DNA from: a virus
Strand: one strand, 5' to 3'
Length of the DNA stretch: 64,000 bases
IMG/VR virus record: IMGVR_UViG_3300032257_000011
Shown one piece after another: positions 47 to 40,123 of the stretch. Within the stretch, counting starts at the first letter, position 1. Every line of letters begins with the position of its first letter. The notes beneath the pieces were generated by a model. It had not been told where the DNA came from, searched no databases, and was given only the letters and a program-made list of their open reading frames with translations. The translations under genes and the position numbers were made by a program.

Positions 47-1819
47 GTGGGAAGTTTTTGGACATTTCTAATGGTGTTGCTTTCGCTTTTGGCCATAGTA
101 GGCGGGATTAGCGGAGCATTCTTTTCAGTCAAACATGGAAAAGGTCTTGCCCTCGCAGGCGGATCTCTCGTAGCAGGTATTGTTCTTGTTATGATGTTTG
201 GCTGGCTCGCTTCTTTCAGACCGATTCCGTCTGGCAAAATTGGTATCGCAACCAAGAATGCTTTAGGTGGAAAACTTCAATCAGGCGACATCATCGCTCT
301 GGATGGAGAAATGGGACAGCAAGTTACAATTCTTCGAGAAGGATGGCATTCAGGTCTTTGGCCGTTCATCTATGATGTTGACTACTATGATGTACTTGAA
401 ATTCCTCAAGGTCAGGTAGGAATCATCGAAGCAAAGGATGGCGAAGGTCTTCCTAATGGTCAAGCATACGCCCCACGATGGGACAATGTTGACAATATGC
501 TTGACCCAGTTACATTTCTTACTGCTGTATCAACTGATTCTTTAAATTCAGTTGGATATAAGGGACCACAATCAACGGTTCTCTCTCCAGGTACTCATGT
601 TTTCCATCCTGGACTTTTCAATATTACAACTGTACCAGCTACAGTTATCGCACCAGGCGAGACTGGCGTTATCAAGTCCAATGTAGGTTCTGAACCAGCT
701 ATGGATCTTGTTGTAAATGGCATTGTTCCTCGTTATGGAGCAAACGAAGAAGAGCATAGAGGGATTTGGGCAGAAGCTATGCCTCCGCAAACTCTCTATA
801 TCAATCCTCAAGCATACTACTGTATTAAGGTTCCAACCACAGTAGCTATTGTTGACTACACAGCATCTCAAGACAACAACGATGAATACACTCAAACAAG
901 CCTTGAGAATTCAATCGAAGTAAAGACGAAGGATGGTTTCAAGTTCCCTATTGATGTAAGAATCGAATATAGAATTCAACCAGCCGATGCATCTACTGTT
1001 GTTTCATTCTTCTATGATGAAAAAACAAAAAACGTGCAAAAGAAACTTCGTCAGAAGATGAATTCAACAGTCCGTTCAGTATTCCGCAACAATGCAGAAA
1101 ACGCTGGCGCTCTTGAATATATCAACAATCGTTCTCACCAAGAGATTACCTGCTTTAGCCTAATCAATACTGAAATGCAACCATTCGGAGTTACGATTAC
1201 GAAGGTCGCTATTGGAGATATTGATCCAAGGTCTGAATCAGAAGAGTTGTCAGCTCTATTGAAGACTCAGACAGATAAACAGATTGCTTTGCAGCAAGAA
1301 CTTACATATGTCCAACAGCAAGCCGCTGCAAAGGAAGAGCAGAAGCTTAATGACGAACAACAAAGAGCTGTTGAAATCAAACGATTGGCTACAGCAGACT
1401 TTGATGCTCAGATTGCTGAGCAAGAAGCTTCTCAGCAAGAGCGACGGGCACTCGGTACAGCAAACTCTGCGAAGTTGACAGCAGATGCAGAAGCTTACGC
1501 TATTCGCTTGAGAGCAACAGCAGAAGCCGAAGGTATCCTTGCTCGTCAAAAAGCAGAGGCTGAAGGATATAGAGAAAAGGCCAATGCAATTGGCGGCTCT
1601 AATCTCGCTATGATTGAACTCTTTGAGAGAATTAGTAGCGGCCAAATCAGCATTACTCCTGATATCGTCGTTGGCGGCGGAAGCGGTAATGAAGGTGGCG
1701 GGACAATCAATGGCATGTTTGCATTGATGATTCAGCGAATGATGGAAGATAGAAATACTGGTAATACATCTTGGCAGCCAAGATCAAATCCAATAGCTCA
1801 ACCTGCATCTAATGACTAA
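47..1819 (+). CDS. SPFH/band-7 (flotillin/YqiK-like) membrane protein
   Basis: N-terminal TM helix; long Ala/Glu/Gln-rich coiled coil (…AEAEGILARQKAEAEGYREKANA…) typical of flotillin-like SPFH proteins; AAGGAG SD before GTG start; terminator hairpin downstream. Confidence 0.7.
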   Translation: MGSFWTFLMVLLSLLAIVGGISGAFFSVKHGKGLALAGGSLVAGIVLVMMFGWLASFRPIPSGKIGIATKNALGGKLQSGDIIALDGEMGQQVTILREGWHSGLWPFIYDVDYYDVLEIPQGQVGIIEAKDGEGLPNGQAYAPRWDNVDNMLDPVTFLTAVSTDSLNSVGYKGPQSTVLSPGTHVFHPGLFNITTVPATVIAPGETGVIKSNVGSEPAMDLVVNGIVPRYGANEEEHRGIWAEAMPPQTLYINPQAYYCIKVPTTVAIVDYTASQDNNDEYTQTSLENSIEVKTKDGFKFPIDVRIEYRIQPADASTVVSFFYDEKTKNVQKKLRQKMNSTVRSVFRNNAENAGALEYINNRSHQEITCFSLINTEMQPFGVTITKVAIGDIDPRSESEELSALLKTQTDKQIALQQELTYVQQQAAAKEEQKLNDEQQRAVEIKRLATADFDAQIAEQEASQQERRALGTANSAKLTADAEAYAIRLRATAEAEGILARQKAEAEGYREKANAIGGSNLAMIELFERISSGQISITPDIVVGGGSGNEGGGTINGMFALMIQRMMEDRNTGNTSWQPRSNPIAQPASND

Positions 1820-7944: not shown

Positions 7945-8397
7945 ATGATTGGATTATCAAAAAATCAAATAGAAAAAATAGAACTCATCTCATCTTCTGA
8001 AAATGTTTGCTTAACAGCCATTCTTCGTAAGGTTGTTATCGAAAGAGAATACAGCGAAGATGTCCTTATTGCTGTTTCTTCCTTCAATGTATCTACACAA
8101 CACGCATCGCCCAGCGTGTACTTGCCTCTAGTCAATAACTTAAAATTACTAAAGATTGATCCTAACGGAAAGCATGCTCACCTATATGGTTATCTATCAT
8201 CTATATGCGCTCTTATTACAATGATGGGTCCAGATGTCTATGTAAGAACAGGAATCGACACAGTAGAACAATATGAAAGCGACAAAAATCTTGGTATTAT
8301 AAAAGTATTTTCTGCTCAAGAAATAATGGATCTATCTTTTGGGTATATTGAGCCAAAAGCTATTGAAGAAATAAATCACGATGACGTTCCATTCTAA
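7945..8397 (+). CDS. tandem paralog family member 1 (shared …L..GxxVYxP/R core)
   Basis: shares motif with next four ORFs. Confidence 0.5.
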   Translation: MIGLSKNQIEKIELISSSENVCLTAILRKVVIEREYSEDVLIAVSSFNVSTQHASPSVYLPLVNNLKLLKIDPNGKHAHLYGYLSSICALITMMGPDVYVRTGIDTVEQYESDKNLGIIKVFSAQEIMDLSFGYIEPKAIEEINHDDVPF

Positions 8398-8411
8398 TAT
8401 ATGAGATTACT

Positions 8412-9203
8412 ATGTTTGAAGAAAATATAAACGCTATAAAAAGAATGACGGAAGAAGATACAGTTTATCTTGCTGTTGTTTGTTCATTCGTTAGACAAGA
8501 GACCCTTATGGCAAGAAATATGATTGTTGCTTGCTGCGACGAACCTATGGGTCCAGTAGACTTTTCTATATTATCTTGCATTGATGCCCCAGCCAGAGTT
8601 CAAGATGTTCATCCGACTATTCAAAGATACGGAGCTACTCCTCTAAATAATGCGAGAAGAGGAGACATGATGTCTTCCCTTAGAGGATATGCTACAATGC
8701 TCACCGTTATGGGCATAAAAGTTTACATGCCAATAAGGAAAAGTTATTCATCAAAAAGAAAAGGTGGCTCGCTCGTTGTAAAGAATCCAGGCATCGGAGG
8801 CGAAGCTGTTTATGAATCATCTTATGACAAAGCGGCTCACGAAAAAGAGTTTACCTTTTTTGAATTCGATCCAACAAATAAAGAACAGTTCAATTACTCA
8901 ATCCCAATCATATCCGCAAAAGACTTTGTAAAATCATTTGACTCTCTTGCTTATGATGTTGATCTGAACAGGTTCTTCCATGACCATGAAGATTCTGAAT
9001 ATTGGCAACAGATGATGGGGGACAGCTATAGTCCTGAAGAATCAAAATTAAAGATCGAACAAGAAAAGCTAAAAGAATTACAAGACACATTATTTCTCGT
9101 TCAGAATAATATGATTTCTCAAGAACAAGCTGTGAATAAAATAACGTCCACGTCCAAGACCTTTGATGAAAGACTAAAAGAAACATTTGGGAGAAATCAA
9201 TGA
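8412..9203 (+). CDS. tandem paralog family member 2
   Basis: LRGYATMLTVMGIKVYMPI core. Confidence 0.55.
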   Translation: MFEENINAIKRMTEEDTVYLAVVCSFVRQETLMARNMIVACCDEPMGPVDFSILSCIDAPARVQDVHPTIQRYGATPLNNARRGDMMSSLRGYATMLTVMGIKVYMPIRKSYSSKRKGGSLVVKNPGIGGEAVYESSYDKAAHEKEFTFFEFDPTNKEQFNYSIPIISAKDFVKSFDSLAYDVDLNRFFHDHEDSEYWQQMMGDSYSPEESKLKIEQEKLKELQDTLFLVQNNMISQEQAVNKITSTSKTFDERLKETFGRNQ

Positions 9204-30511: not shown

Positions 30512-30584
30512 CCTCTTGTAGCCCAATGGCAGAGGCGTTTGTCTTAGGAACAAAATGTTGGTGGTTCGACTCCACTCAAGAGGA
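30512..30584 (+). tRNA. tRNA, anticodon TAG, short variable arm (identity uncertain)
   Basis: 73 nt; C1-G72; 3-bp D stem; anticodon loop CTTAGGA; T-loop GGTTCGACTCC. Confidence 0.5.
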
Positions 30585-30588
30585 TTTA

Positions 30589-30664
30589 GGCCCTGTAGCC
30601 CAACTTGGTAGGAGGCGACAGACTTAAAATTTGTACAGTGTGGGTTCGAATCCCTCCAGGGTCA
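30589..30664 (+). tRNA. tRNA, anticodon TAA, short variable arm, enlarged D-arm (identity uncertain)
   Basis: 76 nt; anticodon loop CTTAAAA; T-loop GGGTTCGAATCCC; one T-stem mismatch. Confidence 0.45.
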
Positions 30665-32690: not shown

Positions 32691-33347
32691 ATGTCAGACA
32701 TGAATATTGCCAACAAACCAGGCGCACAGTCAATTACTGATGCACAAGCAAGCGAACTCGATTACGTTATTGCCATTGATACAAGCGGTTCTATGGCTGG
32801 TCGAGACCCACAGCGTACTGACCTCACCCTTTTCAAGCACGCTCAGGAATGGACAACCGGAATGTCACGTTGGGCTGAAACTGTAGATGATGACGGCATT
32901 ACCGTTATTGCCTTTGGTGGAAACTCTATCGCAATGACAGACAACGTTACAGCAGATAGCGTTGAGACCGTATTCAATTCGCAGCCTCCACGAGGAAGCA
33001 CCCCAACTACTGAAGCTGTCCAGAAGATCATTGACATGAAACTTGCTGGAACGTTTACTAAGGATGTTGTTGCCTTCATCATAACTGATGGTAAGCCAAA
33101 CAACTCCGAGGGTGTTGCTCAAGCAATTGCTGCATGGACTAATCACCCAAGCGCAACTGAGCAAGGTATTTCATTCTCATTCATTCAGATTGGTAATGAT
33201 ACAGCCGCTCGTAATTTCCTTACAATGCTTGATGATGACCTCGAATCCAAGTATGGTGCGAAGTTCGACTGTGTAGACACTCGTACTCTTGCTGAAACAG
33301 AAAACATGTCATACGGCCAACTCGTATGGGGCGCACAGAACGACTAA
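32691..33347 (+). CDS. vWA-domain protein (TerY-like)
   Basis: MIDAS motif VIAIDTSGSM plus ITDGKPN; sits immediately upstream of TerD and TerB homologues. Confidence 0.7.
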   Translation: MSDMNIANKPGAQSITDAQASELDYVIAIDTSGSMAGRDPQRTDLTLFKHAQEWTTGMSRWAETVDDDGITVIAFGGNSIAMTDNVTADSVETVFNSQPPRGSTPTTEAVQKIIDMKLAGTFTKDVVAFIITDGKPNNSEGVAQAIAAWTNHPSATEQGISFSFIQIGNDTAARNFLTMLDDDLESKYGAKFDCVDTRTLAETENMSYGQLVWGAQND

Positions 33348-33465
33348 ATCTCCGAGCAGACAGGCACACCGCTTGTCTGTTTTTTCTCATCTATCAATGT
33401 AGATAGATGGTACTTAACCGCAAGCATTGCTTGCAAATTGTCCTCTTAGGACAAAGGAAACTCAA

Positions 33466-34059
33466 ATGTTGACAATTACTCCAAAGGGCGGGACCGTTGG
33501 TCTCACCATCGCAGCCAAGGCAACTCCTGAAGCATCAACCGCTCCAAATCAGTTCAACTTCGGTGCTGGTTGGGATACCACTGGTGGCGAGGCAGACCTT
33601 GACCTTTGCCTCTTGCAGCATCGTGGCCGTGGCGCTGCTGCTACTGATGGCGATCTCATCTACTACGCTAACCTGACCTCTGCTGGCATCACCCACACCG
33701 GCGATAACCAGACTGGCGAAGGCGACGGAGATGATGAGAATGTTCGCATGAACCTTGCTGATCTTCCTGCTGACGTTACTGCTGTTTCAATCGGTATCGT
33801 TGCATACTCAGCTACTGACTTCGGTAGCGTTGACAACATCCACCTTGAAGGTCGTGCTGGCGATGCTGAGAACGGTTCAGGTCTCTTCGGAGCTGATTTC
33901 TCAGAAACTGGCAACAACACATGCCTCGTAGCTGCACGCCTTGAGCGTCAGGATGATGGCGAGTGGACTGTGGTCAATACTTCAGAGTTCTCGAACCCAG
34001 GCAATGGCGGAGCTGCTATCCAGGGCTTCGTAACTGCTGCATCAGCGCTTTACAGCTAA
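33466..34059 (+). CDS. terD: TerD-family stress protein
   Basis: GWD…DLDL…HTGDNQTGEGDGDDE…DLPADV match TerD Ca-binding signature. Confidence 0.8.
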   Translation: MLTITPKGGTVGLTIAAKATPEASTAPNQFNFGAGWDTTGGEADLDLCLLQHRGRGAAATDGDLIYYANLTSAGITHTGDNQTGEGDGDDENVRMNLADLPADVTAVSIGIVAYSATDFGSVDNIHLEGRAGDAENGSGLFGADFSETGNNTCLVAARLERQDDGEWTVVNTSEFSNPGNGGAAIQGFVTAASALYS

Positions 34060-34163
34060 TCCTCTGTTGGGATTTGGTTTACAACAGTTAGAGGGTAGAA
34101 ATATCCTCTGCTGTTTTCGGAAAACAATAACAGTGCAAGTTGCACAGAACTTAGGAGAAGCAA

Positions 34164-34625
34164 ATGGCTTTTACAAAATTTATGAACATCATGAACAACG
34201 TGGCAGGAGACATTACTGCGAGTGCGAAGAAATTCTCTAACTCAGGAACTCGTGACCGAGCCGCTGCTGTAGCTGCTATCGTTGCTTATGTTCCTGACCA
34301 AGACGCTGACAAGGACGAAATCAGCAAGGGAGTTAAGGCTATTCACAAGATGACTGATGGAGCTTTCAAGATTGATGAAATGCTTGCAGCCGTAAACAGT
34401 GCAGTTGAGACACTTGAGTTTGATGTAGACATGGGATACACGGAATTGATGAATACTGTCCGCAAGGCAGGCGCTGACGAACGACGTTTGCTTGTTAGCG
34501 TTGGCATCGCAGTCGGTAAGTCATCTGGCGAACCGGGCGAAGATCCATTCTCTCCTGAAGAAAAAGATTGCGTTCGTCGAATGATTACTGACCTCGGTAT
34601 GAATGCTTCAGATTTTGGTCTGTAA
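34164..34625 (+). CDS. terB: TerB-like protein
   Basis: C-terminus VGIAVGKSSGE…EEKDCVRRMITDLGMNASDFGL parallels TerB. Confidence 0.65.
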   Translation: MAFTKFMNIMNNVAGDITASAKKFSNSGTRDRAAAVAAIVAYVPDQDADKDEISKGVKAIHKMTDGAFKIDEMLAAVNSAVETLEFDVDMGYTELMNTVRKAGADERRLLVSVGIAVGKSSGEPGEDPFSPEEKDCVRRMITDLGMNASDFGL

Positions 34626-34650
34626 AGAATAAGTCAGACCATTTGTTTCC

Positions 34651-34688
34651 ATAGGGCCGGGTGTACCCTTATGCCCGGTCCTATTTTT
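34651..34688 (+). terminator. terminator-like hairpin + T-run
   Basis: ccggg…cccgg stem then tatttttc. Confidence 0.45.
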
Positions 34689-34711
34689 CAATCAGCTCAA
34701 AGGAATAACTC

Positions 34712-35833
34712 ATGCAATGGACTCACGATTTAGCCACAACCATGTCAACGTGGCATTGGTCACTTTCTCTCCTTCTCACGATTTTGATGACGGTCGTAAT
34801 TAGCCGTGTGATTGCTTGGGCCTGCGACCACTTCGAACCTGCTGCTGGACATCTTGGCCGTAATTGGCCAGCCGGAATCCGTGGAGCAACAATTAATGCT
34901 GTTGGTTCTTCGATGCCTGAGTTGTGGACGACTGTGGGTCTTCTCTTCTTTGTGGGCGTAGGCACTACGACTGGAGTGGCTCTCCTTGGGGCAGGTATCA
35001 GCGTTACAGCGGGGTCTGCTGTTTTCAATTCGGTACTCATTCCTGCTGCTGTAATCTTCGCCGTCACAGCTCCTTTTGTTTTGCGAATCCTGACGTTCGG
35101 GCTTGTCTCAAAAATGGCAAAACAGGCTGATTCGTTCGTAATTGACAAAAGAAGCGTGGCTCGTGACCTCGTATTCATGCTTATTGCTGAAGTATCGCTC
35201 ATCTACTTCCTTCACAACGGGGTCTTCCAGCTCTGGATGTGCTTGTCCTTACTTGGTCTGTACGCCTTTTACGTCCTATTCATGTGGCAAGCTGTACGCT
35301 CTCATGAAGGAGAGGAAACGGAAGCTGAAGAGGGTTGGACGAACAAGCGGGCGCTTTGGACACTTTGTTGGACCACGTTGGCTCTCGTTGTCGCTTGTTA
35401 CTGTCTTGGCGAAATTATCGTAATTTCTGCTGTGGCCCTTGGTATTCACCCCATAATTTCTGCTGTCTTCTTTGGAGCTGCTGCATCGAGCGTTCCTGAC
35501 GTAATCCTGAGCGTAAAGGATGCACGAGCTGGAAATTACGAGGATGCGATTGCAAACGCTGTTGGAAGCAATACATTTGACATCTGTGTTGCTCTGGCTG
35601 GCCCAATGGCAATCTACATCCTGATGTATGGAGAGATTGTTCTTCCTGACCATGCGGCTGTGGAGATCCTCAGGATTGGTCTCCTTCTAACGACGGTACT
35701 TGTCGTTGGTCTTCTCCTTCTAACCAAGCAGGTTCGGTCATGGATCGCCTGGGTCCTGATGGCGGCGTACTTGGTCTGGATCTTCTTTGTTCTTGATACT
35801 GAGTTTGGTCTATTGTTCTTCTCAGGCACCTAG
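34712..35833 (+). CDS. CaCA-family cation/Ca2+ exchanger-like membrane protein
   Basis: about 10 TM helices; alpha-repeat-like GSSMPEL and ASSVPDV. Confidence 0.5.
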   Translation: MQWTHDLATTMSTWHWSLSLLLTILMTVVISRVIAWACDHFEPAAGHLGRNWPAGIRGATINAVGSSMPELWTTVGLLFFVGVGTTTGVALLGAGISVTAGSAVFNSVLIPAAVIFAVTAPFVLRILTFGLVSKMAKQADSFVIDKRSVARDLVFMLIAEVSLIYFLHNGVFQLWMCLSLLGLYAFYVLFMWQAVRSHEGEETEAEEGWTNKRALWTLCWTTLALVVACYCLGEIIVISAVALGIHPIISAVFFGAAASSVPDVILSVKDARAGNYEDAIANAVGSNTFDICVALAGPMAIYILMYGEIVLPDHAAVEILRIGLLLTTVLVVGLLLLTKQVRSWIAWVLMAAYLVWIFFVLDTEFGLLFFSGT

Positions 35834-36588: not shown

Positions 36589-36614
36589 AGGCAGGCACTC
36601 TAAGAAATTGTCTC

Positions 36615-36629
36615 TTTTCCGCGGAAAAA
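36615..36629. promoter_or_regulatory. TTTTCCGCGGAAAAA palindrome
   Basis: read directly. Confidence 0.45.
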
Positions 36630-36785
36630 TGAGAGAATCTACTTGACTTTGAAGAAAAAGTGTGAAATAATGAAGGAACATCAAACAGATGGTCGAATAG
36701 GTTTATACATGAAAAATGTCAAAGTCCATATTAGCATAGTGATTATACCCTAGCGGGGGTAGTCGTTATCTTTATGGATACGGTC

Positions 36786-36823
36786 AACCTCGCTCCCTGC
36801 TTCGGTAGGAAACGAGGTTTTTT
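36786..36823 (+). terminator. hairpin + T6 before tRNA-Val
   Basis: cctcg…cgagg stem + tttttt. Confidence 0.5.
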
Positions 36824-36826
36824 ATT

Positions 36827-36899
36827 GGGCGATTAACTCAATGGCTAGAGTGCTTGCTTTACACGCAAGAAGTTCCCGGTTCGAGTCCGGGATTGCCTA
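36827..36899 (+). tRNA. tRNA-Val (anticodon TAC)
   Basis: hand-folded; anticodon loop TTTACAC. Confidence 0.7.
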
Positions 36900-36910
36900 C
36901 TTCACATTTC

Positions 36911-36985
36911 CCGATTGTAGCTCAGTTGGTTTAGAGCGTTCGCCTGATAAGCGAGAGGCCGGAAGTTCAAGTCTTCCCAATCGGA
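36911..36985 (+). tRNA. tRNA-Ile (anticodon GAT)
   Basis: hand-folded; perfect 7-bp acceptor stem. Confidence 0.7.
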
Positions 36986-37075
36986 TTTAAAACCTGGAGT
37001 TTAGCTATACTCCCATATCAAAATAGCACTCGGAAGTTTTGACCCGTTTGATAGATCGGGGAGGTCTTCTAGCAC

Positions 37076-37149
37076 ATTCCTGTAGCTCAGTTGGCTAGAG
37101 CGCTTTCCTGACACGAAAGAGGCCAGAGGTTCGAGTCCTCTTAGGAATA
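37076..37149 (+). tRNA. tRNA-Val (anticodon GAC)
   Basis: hand-folded; A1-U72. Confidence 0.6.
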
Positions 37150-37265
37150 TTCACATACCTTTCTTCGGAAAAGTAGAGATAAGCCAAGCGAGTGAAGCAG
37201 AGATGCGGTATACTTGGTTTCGACGATTCTTTGACAAGTAAATAGATAATATACTTCATCTTATT

Positions 37266-37338
37266 GGGGCTTTAGCTCAGCGGTTAGAGCATTCCACTCA
37301 TAATGGACAGGTCCTGAGTTCGAATCTCAGAAGCCCTA
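37266..37338 (+). tRNA. tRNA-Met (anticodon CAT; elongator or Ile2-type)
   Basis: hand-folded; anticodon loop CTCATAA. Confidence 0.6.
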
Positions 37339-37348
37339 CTTTCAAGAT

Positions 37349-37423
37349 GGTGAGCGTAGTTCAATTGGTTAGAGCATCTGGTTGTGATCCAGAATGTTGC
37401 GGGTTCGAGCCCCGTCGCCCACC
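37349..37423 (+). tRNA. tRNA-His (anticodon GTG) with G-1 and C73
   Basis: hand-folded; extra 5' G pairing with discriminator C is the His hallmark. Confidence 0.7.
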
Positions 37424-37467
37424 CTTTTAGTTGTAAGTCTTTATTCTTCCTCAAGTTGAATTCAAAT

Positions 37468-37575
37468 TGAAAAACTTTGAGAAAAATGAGTCTTACGACT
37501 TGACATTTTCCTTTTATCTGTTATACTTAGAGACCAACCCAAACGGGAAGGTTTGACAAGTAAATAAAGTAATAA
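37468..37575 (+). promoter_or_regulatory. repeat unit 1 with sigma70 consensus promoter TTGACA-N16-TATACT (37500-37527)
   Basis: about 108-bp unit repeated in tandem. Confidence 0.65.
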
Positions 37576-37602
37576 AAGGAAGTCCCTTGCTCTCTGCGGT
37601 TT

Positions 37603-37710
37603 GAAAAAACTTTGAGAAAAAAGAGACATTCCCCTTGACATCTGAATTTTAGATGTTATACTTAGAGACCGACCCACTTGGGACGGCATGACAAGTAAAT
37701 AAAGTAATAA
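37603..37710 (+). promoter_or_regulatory. repeat unit 2 with TTGACA-N16-TATACT (37635-37662)
   Basis: near-identical copy of unit 1, ending in GACAAGTAAATAAAGTAATAA. Confidence 0.65.
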
Positions 37711-37889
37711 GATGATGATTCCTAAAATTCACGTCGGAGAAATCCTGTTCGAGAAAAAAGGGAATCACCTTGGGACCGAAACCCTCTTACAGTATTTTCG
37801 ATTTTGTTTGGCAAAGCGTTGTGAAAGTTGGAGCTGAACCAAACTGAAAGGTCGAAGATATATTCAACAAAGGGAAGTAAGTCCCGTTT

Positions 37890-38102
37890 GGGACATTAGC
37901 TCAGAGAAGATGAGTTTCCTCGTGGAACTCTAAGGAGCGTTTCTCTCACTCATGGGTTGTTTGAAAACCCAGGCACTTGAATCAAACGAGCGAATCTCCG
38001 TGGTAGCAATACCCGAGACAAGCGAGTAATTTTCGAGACCTGAGAATTCGAGCAGCCCATGAGGGAGAGAAAAGGTCGGCAGTTCGAGTCTGTCATGTCC
38101 CA
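37890..38102 (+). ncRNA. tRNA-like element with about 140-nt structured insertion
   Basis: perfect acceptor GGGACAT/ATGTCCC; D-arm; T-arm GGCAGTTCGAGTCTGTC; variable loop AGGTC; 17-bp helix (37940-56 with 38056-72) closing a 99-nt insert. Confidence 0.5.
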
Positions 38103-38107
38103 CTTTC

Positions 38108-38307
38108 GCCGAGGTAGCTCAACGGCCCGTAAGGGGATTTAGCAACCAAGACCTGGTTCACACCAGAAATTGGGAACTAAATTAGAGCGTTCCTAGTCAT
38201 CGGATAATATGAATGTCTTTTTGTATTTATGAAATACAGACAGCGCTAAACTATTTGTATTATCCGATGATTAGGAAAGGTAGTAGGTTCGACTCCTACT
38301 CTCGGCT
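38108..38307 (+). ncRNA. second tRNA-like element with insertions in D-loop and anticodon-loop positions
   Basis: acceptor GCCGAGG/TCTCGGC; T-arm GTAGGTTCGACTCCTAC; anticodon stem TTCCT/AGGAA extended to about 20 bp (38190-38209 with 38258-38277). Confidence 0.5.
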
Positions 38308-39262
38308 TTTCCAAGTTGCTAGTATCCTTTTGCTCGGAAGCAAAAAAACTAGTGGAGTCCCGTCTTGGGCGACCAAAATAGACTATGGTTTGATGATTTC
38401 CACACGATGAAACATCAGCTAAACAGCTCAGGTTCAGAAGAATAATATTTGCTTGCAAGCATTATTTGGAGAATTAAAAAACAGACTATGGTGGTCTGAA
38501 AGAGTGGACTTTGAATCCAGTTTACGTTGACACACGACTTCGATAATAATCACAGACATGTACAGGATGAAAAGCCTGACATGTCTTTAGAATGGTCAAA
38601 GCTGCGAGGCCCGAAACCATTTGACATATGCAGATTTCCAACATGCGGGTTAAAGCGCAAAGGAAAAAAGCTTTTAGATTGCAAATCTGAACTGTTAGGA
38701 ATGGCAGGAAAGAAATGCTTGAGAAGGTATGTTAGGTCTTGACCTGATATCTCGTCTTCCAAGGAACCGAAAGGGAAACTTGGCTAAAGCAGAAGAACTT
38801 GAAACAGTTCCAAGTATGTAGCCGCAACCGAATATCAAATGGCGACATTTGGTAAAACGAGCGACAACTGTTCGAGGAGATCATCCTCTTCGGACGGTTT
38901 CCCAATACCTTGTTTAGCCTCTTAAGGGAAAGCGACAAGGCTCTGGCTGACTCCAGCTAAACTAAAAGGAGTAGGCAGTTCATGCCTTTGGAAGCAGGAC
39001 GCCAAACCTGTCAAGGACTTGTAATCCTTACTGAGTGTTTGGATGTCACGTAGCTGAGACGAAAATGGACTAGGGCGACCTGGGTGAGAAACCTGGGCCG
39101 ACCCTTTAGGAAGCGCGAAAGCAATTCCGAGCTATTGGATGACCCGTGATTGAACATTAGGGATTCCAAAGGTACTCTTCTTTTGCTAACGGTTAAATCA
39201 ATACCGAACAAGCAAACTCGAAGAGTAACTACTTAGAGAACTAAACAGCTCTTTGTAGTTTT
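38308..39262 (+). ncRNA. about 950-nt non-coding region; candidate large structured ncRNA (GOLLD/ROOL-class hypothesis)
   Basis: no ORF above 71 aa on either strand; downstream of tandem strong promoters; flanked by tRNAs; internal repeat AGACTATGG x2; several GNRA/UUCG-like hairpins. Confidence 0.3.
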
Positions 39263-39337
39263 CGCGGAGTAGAGCAGTCCGGTCAGCTCGTTTGGCTCAT
39301 AACCAAGAGGTCGAGGGTTCGAATCCTTCCTCCGCTA
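39263..39337 (+). tRNA. tRNA (anticodon CAT) with C1:U72 mismatch
   Basis: hand-folded; anticodon loop CTCATAA; T-loop GGGTTCGAATCC. Confidence 0.55.
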
Positions 39338-39500
39338 TTTATGCTTAGACCCCCGCAAGGGGATAGACGACGGTCGAAAGTAGGGCAACCTGCATCTAAG
39401 CACCTTGCCCCCTCCGAGATCCCCTTAGATCGAGAACTTGTTCTCTCTTTGGGGATTTCTTTATTTAACAGGCACTATCTCCAATTTCCATTTTGAACTC

Positions 39501-39513
39501 ATTCACATGCGAT
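39501..39513 (+). promoter_or_regulatory. ATTCACATGCGAT motif (early variant of TTCACATGC class)
   Basis: same 13-mer at 25452, 26978, 27676 and 40649. Confidence 0.5.
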
Positions 39514-39565
39514 ACTTTACCCGCATGATTGGATGTCAGACGTTTCAAAATAACCCTGTTCAATA

Positions 39566-40123
39566 ATGGAGAACAAACAAATGGCCAGAAAAGCAAAATT
39601 CACACGAACCACCACACGCTCAGCTCTTCGTCCAGTAGATGACACAAAACGAAGCGCTTCAGCAAAGAACTCAACTGAAGCTCAGCCCGTCGCTGGCAAT
39701 GCAGGATCAATCCCTGCCTTCATTGGGGAATTCTTCACGAAGGTTGCCAAACGGTTCAATGCCACGAGCGGCTACGGCCTTCAGCACATCAACTCAAATG
39801 GAGCAGCACATCCTGATGCTGTCATGACCAAGAGCAATGCGGCACTCACGAAGCTTGCATCTCAGGCCATCGAGGTACTCTGTCAACGAGCAGCATTGAG
39901 TGGCCAAGATGGGGCTGTCGAGGCGCTTGGCCCTCAAGGGGACCCAGCCCAGGCTAAGAAATTCATCGCAGACATCAGCCGATTTGCGAATAGTCGAGTC
40001 AAAGCTATCCAAGCAGACCAGAGTCAGGCATTTCTTGACAACGTGGCCGAGGAACTAGGTATTGATGCCTCAGAACTTGTTCCAGCGCCAGCCAAAAAGA
40101 CCAAGAAAAAGGCAAAGGCATAA
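39566..40123 (+). CDS. hypothetical protein with Lys-rich C-terminal tail (possible DNA/RNA binder)
   Basis: ORF track; C-terminus KKTKKKAKA. Confidence 0.5.
   Translation: MENKQMARKAKFTRTTTRSALRPVDDTKRSASAKNSTEAQPVAGNAGSIPAFIGEFFTKVAKRFNATSGYGLQHINSNGAAHPDAVMTKSNAALTKLASQAIEVLCQRAALSGQDGAVEALGPQGDPAQAKKFIADISRFANSRVKAIQADQSQAFLDNVAEELGIDASELVPAPAKKTKKKAKA

Follow-up and report, generated by a model that had tools for sequence, protein, structure and literature searches.

The 64,000-nt stretch of DNA analysed here (the window) is from an uncultured large phage-like genome and contains neighbouring genes, TLS1 and TLS2, for two RNAs that have a tRNA body without an anticodon arm. Both are conserved modules at the front of a large structured RNA operon not described before, in which a sigma-70 promoter, a leader hairpin, TLS1, TLS2, an ornate RNA and a terminator follow one another in an order that is kept. 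All features described below lie on the plus strand. Upstream of the operon a promoter module of ∼115 nt is repeated (37455-37570 and 37590-37710), and each copy includes a sigma-70-type sequence, TTGACA-16-TATACT with TG, that agrees with the consensus at 11 of 12 positions (37500..37527 and 37635..37662). The second of these is nearest to the RNA genes and is a probable promoter; a related sequence, TTGACT...TATACT, precedes the TLS1 of one relative (L005) by ∼190 nt. Together with an initiator-type tRNA-Met in the operon, the sigma-70 consensus promoters indicate a bacterial host. The leader hairpin (37797..37856) is conserved: RNAalifold on four lineages gives 14 pairs, five of them with compensatory change, and an apical loop, GUGAAAG (37821-37827), that is invariant and unpaired. 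The two tRNA-like genes are separated by the 5-nt spacer CUUUC (38103..38107; CUUUG in the relative L054), a gap comparable to those of 4–10 nt between adjacent genuine tRNA genes in the window (30414/30419 and 32481/32487).

TLS1 (37890..38102) is a non-decoding tRNA-like RNA of 213 nt that is supported by fold z-score, covariation, orthologues and the intron mode of ARAGORN. A reading of the sequence alone had described an acceptor stem, a D-arm, a T-arm and a variable loop shared with nearby tRNAs, and all four are present. The 7-bp acceptor stem is formed by GGGACAT (37890-96) and ATGTCCC (38095-101), followed by the discriminator A38102; U8A9 precede a D-stem, GCUC/GAGC, at 37899-902/37935-38; the T-arm is GGCAG-TTCGAGT-CTGTC (38078-94); and the variable loop AGGTC (38073-77) is shared with two genuine tRNA-Met genes, at 37266 and 39262. 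The D-loop is expanded (37903..37934) and consists of AGAGAAGAU, a hairpin, GAGUUUCC-UCGU-GGAACUC (37912-30), and UAAG. This hairpin had been placed at position 26, but it is better accommodated inside the D-loop closed by the invariant D-stem GCUC/GAGC, at a cost of only 0.1 kcal/mol. The same site holds hairpins of different sequence, between conserved flanks, in TLS1 and the second element (TLS2') of L054 and in TLS2' of another relative, L142. The D-loop of L005 TLS1 is AGAGAAA and lacks the hairpin. In place of the anticodon arm is a rod (37940..38072; 133 nt, 48 predicted pairs) with a GCAA tetraloop at its tip. Its 17-bp basal helix with one mismatch was correctly recognized (37940-56 with 38056-72, 16 pairs and an A.G mismatch), but the predicted fold above it is one irregular rod rather than the 99-nt multi-hairpin insert first suggested. 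L005 and L054 also have a long helix at this position, with unrelated rod sequence.

TLS2 (38108..38307) is a second non-decoding tRNA-like RNA, of 200 nt, supported by fold z-score and by covariation with the 75%-identical relative L006. The acceptor is GCCGAGG/TCTCGGC (38108-14/38300-06) with discriminator U38307, the D-stem is again GCUC/GAGC (38117-20/38185-88), and a 5-nt variable loop (38278-82) leads into the T-arm GTAGG-TTCGACT-CCTAC (38283-99). The anticodon-arm position is occupied by a rod (38190..38277; 88 nt, 37 predicted pairs) whose base forms ∼25 consecutive base pairs, the helix continuing uninterrupted outward from TTCCT/AGGAA; compared with L006 this basal helix has three compensatory changes. 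Directly 3' of the GG of the D-loop is a 59-nt insertion (38126..38183), consisting of a GNRA hairpin, CCC-GUAA-GGG, and a 48-nt hairpin with internal loops and the apical loop UUCACA. The inner 31 nt of the insertion (38143-38173) differ from L006 by a single base, the outer helix has two compensatory changes and the tetraloop GUAA is replaced by GCAA. The acceptor, T-arm, extended anticodon-stem helix and additional D-loop insertion proposed for this element are confirmed. Both elements have the 7-bp acceptor stem, D-arm, 5-bp T-stem and 7-nt T-loop of a canonical tRNA body, and the usual tertiary nucleotides (U8, A14, G15:C48, G46, G53:C61 and T54-A58); G18G19 is present in TLS2 and missing from TLS1. 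In each, acceptor and T-stem form a 12-bp minihelix, and CCA is not encoded, as in the neighbouring tRNAs.

Both elements fold far more stably than shuffled sequences, with minimum free energies of −91.9 kcal/mol for TLS1 (z = −7.75) and −80.9 kcal/mol for TLS2 (z = −8.64), and 0 of 200 shuffles was equally stable in either case. Comparison with L006 shows 12 compensatory changes, seven one-sided changes and three broken pairs in TLS1, and six, eight and seven in TLS2, where the broken pairs are mostly in a tip that cannot be aligned. In sum, 18 compensatory and 15 one-sided changes stand against 10 broken pairs, and the covariation supports the structures, including the long helices for which conservation in related phages had been sought. 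Default ARAGORN calls neither element of the window and no Rfam family, RF00005 included, matches them at E≤10, while the Rfam tRNA model scores the TLS2 of L006 at 35.2 bits (gathering threshold 29), with insertions of 59 nt and 89 nt. When introns are allowed, ARAGORN calls TLS1 at 37890-38103 as tRNA-Gly(ccc) with a 132-nt intron and, with a lowered score threshold, TLS2 at 38108-38307 as tRNA-Thr(tgt). The boundaries agree with ours, no ordinary tRNA was detected with different ones, and the same program with introns made zero calls in 20 random 64-kb sequences (1.28 Mb). The anticodon that ARAGORN is forced to assign changes with each orthologue (Gly, Phe, Trp or Val for TLS1; Thr, Val or Glu for the second element), so there is no real anticodon. 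A 5-bp anticodon stem closing a 7-nt loop with U33 was not found in either element, the rod helix being continuous, and TLS1 and TLS2 cannot be decoding tRNAs. Searched against Rfam, the rods gave only chance matches, to microRNA precursors (L006, E of 4e-5 to 1e-4, 14–33 bits against thresholds of 90) and to one CRISPR repeat (E = 6.4).

Orthologues of TLS1 were found in L005, L006, L054 and L142, and the order leader, TLS1, TLS2 and large RNA recurs in the window, L006, L054 and L142. In the more distant lineages (L005, L054 and L142), one of which comes from the 498-kb viral contig IMGVR_UViG_3300020429_000529, the architecture is kept with unrelated rod sequences. The large RNA starts directly behind the TLS2 discriminator in L006, L054 and L142 (N73-UUAGA...), whereas in the window ∼280 extra nt lie between TLS2 and the core of the large RNA. 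L005 lacks TLS2 and has a real tRNA, an HNH gene and ∼600 nt between TLS1 and the core; the real tRNA is a tRNA-Met that begins 5 nt after TLS1 and needs excision to function. This region of L005 includes a homing endonuclease of the HNH type and a duplication of a tRNA 3' end. In cultured phages the locus with 20 kb around it matches only ordinary tRNAs, and two window proteins searched for similarity gave remote matches or none. Searches of IMG/VR with a 185-aa neighbour protein, the exact TLS1 3' sequence, a 20-mer from the large RNA and a pattern for the expanded D-loop retrieved nothing, and homologues of the Na/Ca exchanger beyond L005 and L006 lie in bacterial chromosomes or an unrelated phage that do not have the RNAs. 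This 185-aa protein, encoded 3' of the large RNA, is the only one that recurs outside the synteny of the window lineage (19 loci); it has no match in Pfam, PHROG or PDB, and the AlphaFold prediction for it cannot be used (pLDDT 50). Pfam searches of the 95 window ORFs revealed no RNA ligase, nucleotidyltransferase, Ro/TROVE protein or synthetase and nothing else related to RNA metabolism. An antisense role was rejected, as TLS1 and TLS2 have no complementarity to the rest of the window beyond chance.

TLS1 is part of a broader family of metagenomic tRNA-like genes, which among the matches listed are found mostly in phage tRNA arrays and are marked by the D-loop AGAGAAA and by anticodon arms that are tetraloop-capped or irregular. 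The family is defined by a GGGAnnn acceptor, a UA-GCUC-AGAGAA(A/G) D-arm, an AGGUC-type variable loop, a T-arm, A73 and an arm that does not decode and varies in length, and every one of these features is found in TLS1; conservation of GGGA and of the D-arm is partly circular, as these positions were fixed in the retrieval pattern. Sixteen shorter members were inspected (12 in A5, of 65–80 nt, with L064, L098, L141 and one further). Their arms end in loops of 4, 5, 6, 8 or 15–17 nt, and only one has a canonical loop; some relatives have arms of only 3–5 bp capped by tetraloops. The Rfam tRNA model, run on seven of these TLS1 relatives (65–112 nt), nevertheless scored them at 39.7–60 bits. In the inspected members the last D-loop base and T-loop position 56 are A-U seven times, G-C four times and A-C four times, which suggests that the 19:56 elbow pair is kept. 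A family model (R1) ranked L005 TLS1 top at 73 bits, against ≤56 bits for genuine tRNAs in the searched loci, and it recovered window TLS1 as two fragments (13.7 and 22.6 bits) because it cannot bridge two large insertions. That TLS1 is an expanded member of an anticodon-less family implies selection on the tRNA body, with an anticodon arm that can become shorter or longer freely. TLS2 has another acceptor, the D-loop AACGG and U73; it lies outside the AGAGAAA family and by these features is a separate tRNA derivative.

The large structured RNA (38308..39261) is ∼950 nt long in the window. RNAalifold on four lineages gives 127 pairs, 52 with compensatory change, no ORF is conserved across lineages, and no Rfam family, GOLLD and ROOL included, is matched by the window at E≤10 or by L005, L006 and L054 at E≤1. 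The conserved core begins at 38586 and comprises ∼520 nt, and it is preceded by a segment specific to the window (38308-38585). Embedded near the 3' end is a genuine tRNA-Met(CAU) with an initiator-like 1:72 mismatch (39262..39338; called by ARAGORN and by Rfam at 59.6 bits). In L005 the flanking RNA is contiguous and the copy of this tRNA is elsewhere, and positions 39306-39391 of the window align with L005 9682-9765. The presumed 3' tail of the large RNA follows (39339..39480), with a probable terminator that consists of a GAGAA-CUUG-UUCUC hairpin and a T-rich run (U-tract) and is clearer at the equivalent site in L054 and L005. The large RNA is multi-junctional and lies within a tRNA cluster in phage DNA, the same context as GOLLD and ROOL.

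We propose, giving the idea about an even chance of being right, that TLS1 and TLS2 are natural non-decoding 'tRNA scaffolds' that are excised and stabilized by the host RNase P, RNase Z and CCA enzymes and punctuate the large RNA. The parts that are kept, the acceptor/T minihelix, D-stem and variable loop, are those read by tRNA end-processing enzymes, and the expansions occupy the two places where a tRNA tolerates additional sequence, at the end of its anticodon arm and within the variable stretch of its D-loop. A strong sigma-70 promoter would drive a single operon headed by the leader hairpin, TLS1 and TLS2. Host RNase P would cleave at G+1 of each module, RNase Z or exonucleases would trim the 3' side back to the discriminator and the end would then be completed by the CCA-adding enzyme, yielding two stable tRNA-shaped RNAs that carry a long rod as payload. 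The same cuts would define the 5' end of the large RNA, the modules serving as tRNA punctuation, and the rods may act as RNase III substrates, protein-binding modules or assembly modules. We infer cleavage from the likeness of the modules to tRNA. There is a precedent in tRNA chimeras whose anticodon arm was swapped for structured inserts (at least up to 250 nt), which are recognized by E. coli factors, precisely processed and accumulate (PMC3753655). Punctuation alone, however, needs no rods of 88–133 nt and gives no reason why the interior of the TLS2 D-loop insertion is nearly invariant, and RNase P recognition of the elbow could be weakened by the lack of G18G19 in TLS1 or by the 59-nt insert beside them in TLS2.

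The sequence-only reading had offered three interpretations, of which RNase P/Z processing signals and 5' domains of the downstream RNA both fit the comparative data, whereas unusual intron-containing tRNAs are not supported. With the second in mind, the modules might remain covalent domains of one giant RNA of ∼1.3–1.8 kb, as do GOLLD-linked tRNAs, their rods and hairpins making tertiary or intermolecular contacts that aid folding or oligomerization; we regard this as rather unlikely. TLS2 is joined to the large RNA without a spacer in three lineages, and GNRA tetraloops occur on the TLS1 rod and on one TLS2 hairpin. Hairpin loops UUCACA or UUCACG, found in the TLS2 D-loop insertion (window and L006), capping the TLS1 rod (L054) or on a free hairpin before the core (L005), can pair with the invariant leader loop, and U-GUGAA accompanies UUCAC-A as C-GUGAA accompanies UUCAC-G. 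This complementarity may nevertheless be due to chance, with TTCAC present two to seven times per locus, the core RNA included. The placement of the modules is loose, with the 280 extra nt of the window and, in L005, a TLS1 far from the core and no TLS2, and because the embedded genuine tRNA-Met has to be released, the transcript is cut anyway. GOLLD and ROOL are phage RNA-only cages near tRNA islands, the GOLLD linker sometimes with tRNAs (PMC12286853). A still broader proposal is a new kind of phage RNA machine, in which the tRNA-shaped modules, with their rods and the loop motifs inserted in them, are an integral part of how the large RNA folds, assembles or captures cargo, combined with a translation-independent role of the anticodon-less family, for example as decoys or adaptors for tRNA-recognizing host enzymes; this too we hold to be doubtful.

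A decoy role on its own, in which the modules are processed as in the scaffold proposal and the tRNA body, the rod or both titrate a host factor (a tRNA-targeting toxin, RNase III or a dsRNA-sensing immune enzyme), appears improbable. The family occurs mostly in phage tRNA arrays among the matches listed, and such arrays are widely regarded as counter-defence tools. The basal rod helices comprise 16–26 consecutive or nearly consecutive base pairs (∼25 in TLS2), close to the helix length used by RNase III, and the helices are kept even as the rod tips change rapidly. Yet no defence or anti-defence gene is linked to TLS1 or TLS2, the Pfam survey tied none of the 95 window ORFs to RNA metabolism, the modules have no complementary partner elsewhere in the window, a very large cellular tRNA pool would compete and the proposal is purely inferential. 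Long, near-perfect inverted repeats exactly at the anticodon region could also mark dead tRNA genes broken by palindromic, MITE-like insertions and left as neutral relics; degenerate copies do build up in phage tRNA arrays, and the HNH homing endonuclease and duplicated tRNA 3' end of L005 would suit such a history. The 18 compensatory changes that maintain pairing between the window and L006 make it very unlikely, as do an architecture kept in five lineages despite unrelated sequences, the lack of another copy of either rod in the 64-kb window, the strong dedicated upstream promoters and the conserved position relative to the large RNA. That the elements are intron-containing tRNAs spliced into decoding tRNAs, as the ARAGORN calls (the Thr call at the lower threshold) would imply, is hardly credible: the assigned anticodon differs among all orthologues, the helix extends unbroken from the anticodon stem and lacks a 7-nt loop, bulge-helix-bulge or group I core, the inserts are of 88–133 nt and accompanied by a second insertion in the D-loop, and the host appears to be bacterial.

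Several known RNA classes were considered and rejected. A tRNA with a group I intron is not supported, since Intron_gpI is unmatched at E≤10 and the inserts fold as simple rods of 88–133 nt, and an archaeal tRNA with a bulge-helix-bulge intron would require symmetric 3-nt bulges that the basal helices lack, in a host indicated to be bacterial. A tmRNA, for which the sequence-only reading had already missed a tag ORF, is likewise rejected: the tmRNA mode of ARAGORN is empty in four lineages, there is no Rfam tmRNA match, and the 3:70 pair reads G:C for TLS1 and C:G for TLS2. Of the G3:U70, pseudoknots and tag ORF that a tmRNA has, the elements show none. YrlA and the tRNA-like domain of tmRNA do resemble TLS1 and TLS2 as non-decoding mimics with a long helix at the position of the anticodon arm. 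However, YrlA is circularly permuted, ends in a long stem with a closed acceptor and is linked to rsr; here the D-arm precedes the T-arm, the acceptor is open, the YrlA model is unmatched and no TROVE protein is among the 95 window ORFs, which argues against a YrlA or Y RNA.

Other systems are instructive as parallels. The mascRNA-type element of MALAT1 and MEN-beta, a tRNA-like fold inside a long non-coding RNA, directs RNase P/Z cleavage, sets the end of the long RNA and yields a small tRNA-like by-product. RNase P/Z cleavage is likewise proposed here, but the mascRNA element is eukaryotic, small and at the 3' end, whereas the TLS modules would be bacterial or phage elements, at the 5' end, in tandem and with giant expansions. 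The tandem stable RNAs species 1 and 2 of phage T4 (rnaC and rnaD; 139 and 119 nt) lie at the end of a phage tRNA cluster with a homing endonuclease, and rnaC resembles the TLS elements in having a T-arm-like CCGGGUUCGAAUCCCGG and long hairpins; we know of no function for them. Unlike the TLS elements, rnaC lacks a clean 7-bp acceptor and a D-arm, rnaD has z = −0.8 against shuffles and neither is linked to a large RNA, and no sequence similarity of the TLS region to species 1 and 2 was found. The downstream RNA has a parallel in GOLLD and ROOL, large, structured, seemingly protein-free phage RNAs beside tRNA islands, with tRNAs, often Met, within or beside them (PMC12286853), but the GOLLD-linked tRNAs are ordinary, the TLS modules are anticodon-less and expanded, and the Rfam models of both are unmatched here. 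In the engineered tRNA scaffold of Ponchon and Dardel the acceptor, T-arm and D-arm are kept and a helix-closed insert replaces the anticodon stem-loop, as in TLS1 and TLS2 (PMC3753655). Those chimeras are man-made, whereas the TLS design is natural, occurs in five phage lineages, has an extra D-loop insertion and is fused to a large non-coding RNA.

If the scaffold proposal is correct, the tRNA body is used in nature as a pure chassis, expanded at the anticodon arm, the site that engineers chose, and at a second site in the D-loop. Members of the family are annotated as 'tRNA-???' or given a wrong amino acid although they are unable to decode, a misannotation that affects phage tRNA counts and inferences about codon usage and recoding. 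Searches for binding partners have clear targets in the rods, whose basal helices comprise 16–26 bp, and in the D-loop module, which is almost invariant. The locus presents a conserved three-part RNA operon, with a leader, two tRNA-like modules and a large ornate RNA, in huge uncultured phages, and it would provide a handle on why phage RNAs of the GOLLD/ROOL type adjoin or contain tRNAs.

The noncoding tract of almost 3 kb (about 36590–39565) contains six ordinary tRNA genes and, at 37890–38307, two tandem tRNA-like elements, TLS1 (37890–38102) and TLS2 (38108–38307). TLS1 comprises the acceptor GGGACAU/AUGUCCC followed by U8A9, the D-stem GCUC/GAGC and G26, a 133-nt arm, the variable loop AGGUC, the T-arm GGCAG-UUCGAGU-CUGUC and discriminator A. 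TLS2 has the acceptor GCCGAGG/UCUCGGC, the D-stem GCUC/GAGC, a D-loop in which AACGG precedes a 59-nt insertion, an 88-nt arm, the variable loop AGGUA, the T-arm GUAGG-UUCGACU-CCUAC and discriminator U. Each element alone folds to this shape, with a minimum free energy of −91.9 kcal/mol (z=−7.75) for TLS1 and −80.9 kcal/mol (z=−8.64) for TLS2, and no shuffled sequence was as stable. The features named for both elements by the sequence-only reading are present where it had placed them. Two of its details were revised: the 99-nt interior of TLS1, described as multi-hairpin, is predicted to run on as a single irregular rod tipped with GCAA, and the hairpin at 37912–37930, assigned to position 26, is placed in the D-loop instead, the fold with a canonical D-stem costing only 0.1 kcal/mol. 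Relatives carry different hairpins between the same D-loop flanks (AGAGAAGAY ... UAAG).

The 13 tRNAs that default ARAGORN and Rfam call in the window include neither element, and no Rfam family matches either even at E≤10. With introns allowed, ARAGORN called TLS1 at 37890–38103 and, under a relaxed threshold, TLS2 at 38108–38307, with zero calls in 20 random 64-kb sequences; since both elements are called and none in random sequence, the tRNA-likeness is real. Neither element passes as a decoding tRNA, intron-bearing tRNA, tmRNA or Y RNA, failing the defining tests of each. The anticodon stem runs on as an unbroken helix of 16–26 consecutive or nearly consecutive pairs, the folds contain no 7-nt loop, bulge-helix-bulge or group I core, and ARAGORN in tmRNA mode found nothing. 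The anticodon forced by ARAGORN is different in each TLS1 orthologue (Gly(ccc), Phe(gaa), Trp(cca) and Val(gac)), and for orthologues of the second element it is Thr(tgt), Val(aac) or Glu(ttc). The continuous helix, lack of an intron motif and changing anticodon leave the earlier suggestion of unusual intron-containing tRNAs unsupported. Both elements lack G:U at position 3:70 and with it alanine identity.

Elsewhere in the window, two tRNAs of class-I length (30512–30584 and 30589–30664; 73 and 76 nt) lack a long variable arm and have the Leu anticodons UAG and UAA. They adjoin normal long-arm tRNA-Leu genes, the window having six or seven Leu-anticodon tRNAs, and their amino-acid identity is uncertain.

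Similarity searches found no resemblance of the window to any cultured phage. Near-identical strain contigs (L001–L004) were reached by exact look-up of the downstream 185-residue ORF, two syntenic relatives (L006 and L005) through homologues of this ORF, a fourth lineage (L054) by a pattern scan and a fifth (L142, from a 498-kb IMG/VR contig) by a large-RNA motif scan. Both elements are present in L006 at 75% identity. Mapped on the window fold, TLS1 shows 12 compensatory changes, 7 one-sided changes and 3 broken pairs against L006, and TLS2 shows 6, 8 and 7, respectively, its broken pairs lying mostly in the non-aligning tip. L005 has TLS1 only, with a plain AGAGAAA D-loop, the acceptor GGGACGG/CCGUCCC and an arm in which a perfect 16-bp helix of unrelated sequence encloses a 50-nt interior. 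L054 and L142 each carry two tandem expanded modules, and the rod and D-loop hairpin sequences are again different. Conservation of the long helices in relatives, proposed in the sequence-only reading as a check, is seen in the compensatory changes against L006 and in the architecture kept in L005, L054 and L142. No second copy of either rod occurs in the window. Because the structure persists although the sequence is not conserved, and because changes are compensatory, chance is ruled out and neutral palindromic insertions are unlikely. TLS1 and TLS2 are a genuine pair of tRNA-derived RNAs that lack an anticodon, are structured and are conserved.

In all lineages a leader hairpin with an invariant GUGAAAG loop lies upstream of the modules and a large RNA lies downstream, at 38308–39261 plus 39339–39480 in the window, 478–1035 (reverse strand) in L054, 9197–9865 in L005, 6835–7400 in L006 and 271–1340 in L142. 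RNAalifold on four sequences predicted 127 pairs, of which 52 show compensatory change, and no Rfam family, including GOLLD and ROOL, matches the large RNA. Its UUAGA start is directly 3′ of the TLS2 discriminator in L006, L054 and L142, and an additional 280 nt separate TLS2 from the start of the core in the window. A genuine tRNA-Met is found near its 3′ end in the window and L006, and directly after TLS1 in L005; the large RNAs of L054 and L142 have no embedded tRNA-Met. A similar arrangement is reported for GOLLD RNAs, with tRNA-Met genes alongside or within them. In L001 (131–495) and L003, which are ∼99% identical to the window, a different 338-nt segment replaces 38900–39105 and resembles a second, incomplete copy of the core's 5′ part (UUAGAAAGG..., GGAACCGAAAGGGAAAC...). 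This swap and partial internal duplicates in the L005 large RNA make the large RNA appear modular and strain-variable.

The large RNA is followed by probable terminators and then the conserved 185-residue ORF (39566–40123; homologues P0001–P0003; 58–750 (−) in L054). The ORF is found there in the window, L005, L006 and L054, the short L142 locus ending before it. Its product has tails rich in lysine and conserves a GYGxQH...H motif; Pfam, PHROG and PDB gave no match, and the AlphaFold model is poor (pLDDT 50). This protein may be a partner of the large RNA. In L005 (8067–8590) the tRNA-Met is followed by a 119-residue HNH endonuclease ORF (8200–8559) and a duplicated tRNA 3′ end (T-arm and acceptor, 8560–8588), an arrangement that resembles a homing-endonuclease footprint within the tRNA/ncRNA cluster and recalls segB of the T4 tRNA cluster.

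Two predicted sigma-70 promoters upstream of the elements (11/12 consensus matches each) and the initiator-type 1:72 mismatch of the tRNA-Met (39262–39338; C1 opposite U72) indicate a bacterial host. A tandem duplication of ∼115 nt (37455–37570 and 37590–37710) with a near-consensus sigma-70 promoter precedes the conserved UAGAGACCRACCCA...UGACAAGUAAAUAAAGUAAUAA, and a related AAGUAAAU motif lies upstream of a tRNA-Met at 37266. Directly upstream of the tRNA/ncRNA region is a vWA, TerD, TerB and Na/Ca-exchanger cluster (32691–35833), syntenic in L005 and L006; the closest cellular exchangers come from marine proteobacteria, a hint at the host.

TLS1 and TLS2 probably have a processing role. 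The modules keep every element used by tRNA end-processing enzymes and adjoin RNAs needing defined ends, and their spacer is 5 nt, other tRNA pairs in the window being 4–10 nt apart. Both insertion sites, the anticodon arm and the D-loop, are tolerated by the tRNA fold. In E. coli, tRNA chimeras with structured RNA in place of the anticodon arm undergo processing and are stabilised (PMC3753655). In the proposed mechanism, TLS1 and TLS2 would be cut out by RNase P and RNase Z (or exonucleases), with CCA addition, as stable RNAs that bear rods, and the same excision would define where the large RNA has its 5′ end. This mechanism does not explain what the rods do, or the near-invariant D-loop module of TLS2.

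In the leading alternative, the modules remain attached as architectural domains of the large RNA. Complementarity of the leader GUGAA to UUCACR loops hints at this, but weakly, since TTCAC is frequent in the loci. We consider attachment unlikely; a decoy role is more improbable still. The UUCACA or UUCACG hairpin loops complementary to the invariant GUGAAAG differ in location by lineage (37821–37827 with 38157–38162 in the window; 22 with 182 on the L054 reverse strand; 7862 with 9178 in L005), and the base flanking the complement co-varies, U with A and C with G. A GUGAAAG–UUCAC kissing-loop contact may form, but as TTCAC occurs 2–7 times per locus, the complementarity could be chance.

A search of IMG/VR and JGI metagenomes with the TLS1 acceptor and D-arm pattern GGGANNNTAGCTCAGAGAA, which itself fixes GGGA and the D-arm, returned tRNA-like genes among the matches listed. 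Common to these genes are UA-GCUC-AGAGAAA-GAGC, a variable loop of the AGGUC type, a normal T-arm and A73, and CCA is often encoded. The anticodon arm is highly variable, from 3–5 bp capped by GCAA or GUUA tetraloops (L080, L136, L084), through loops of 5, 6 or 8 nt (L064, L015, L041, L061, L016) and 15–17 nt (L027, L062, L141), to long arms (L098, 112 nt in total). A canonical anticodon loop occurs in only one of the 16 shorter members inspected (the 12 of the short set A5, L064, L098, L141 and one further; L128), and ARAGORN labels several members 'tRNA-???'. Seven tested members score 39.7–60 bits as Rfam tRNAs. A covariance model of 12 short members ranks the L005 TLS1 top (73 bits), genuine tRNAs in the searched loci reaching ≤56 bits; Ile tRNAs are the best-scoring of these, which suggests an isoleucine-type tRNA body as ancestor. 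The final base of the D-loop varies with T-loop position 56 (A/U seven times, G/C four, A/C four), suggesting a preserved elbow pair. TLS2 of the window and L006, which retains GG in the D-loop and has U73, is a tRNA derivative distinct from this family; that of L006 scores 35.2 bits on Rfam tRNA with insertions of 59 and 89 nt.

Most of the family members listed lie in phage tRNA arrays, and one is solitary. The family was not found in cultured phages, and 185,579 species genomes gave one match, on an 18-kb contig of a metagenome-assembled genome. In two loci short members are 4–6 nt away from genes for amber-suppressor tRNA(CUA), and they lie ∼150–800 nt from phage-encoded tmRNA genes in two others (L041 1612–1765, L061 56–205, L080 35–670 and L141 5364–6677), and may be linked to stop-codon or ribosome-rescue biology.

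The searchable literature yielded no description of such anticodon-less expanded tRNA-like elements. They are closest in design to the engineered tRNA scaffold, in logic to mascRNA-type punctuation and in genomic setting to the T4 species 1 and 2 RNAs, which are stable, lie in tandem at the end of a tRNA cluster and contain a T-arm-like hairpin; a similar setting is that of GOLLD and ROOL and the tRNAs associated with them. The large ornate RNA fused to TLS2 is probably the more important object of the locus, and the TLS1/TLS2 pair is a new variant of tRNA-like noncoding RNA inside an undescribed large-RNA operon of huge uncultured phages.
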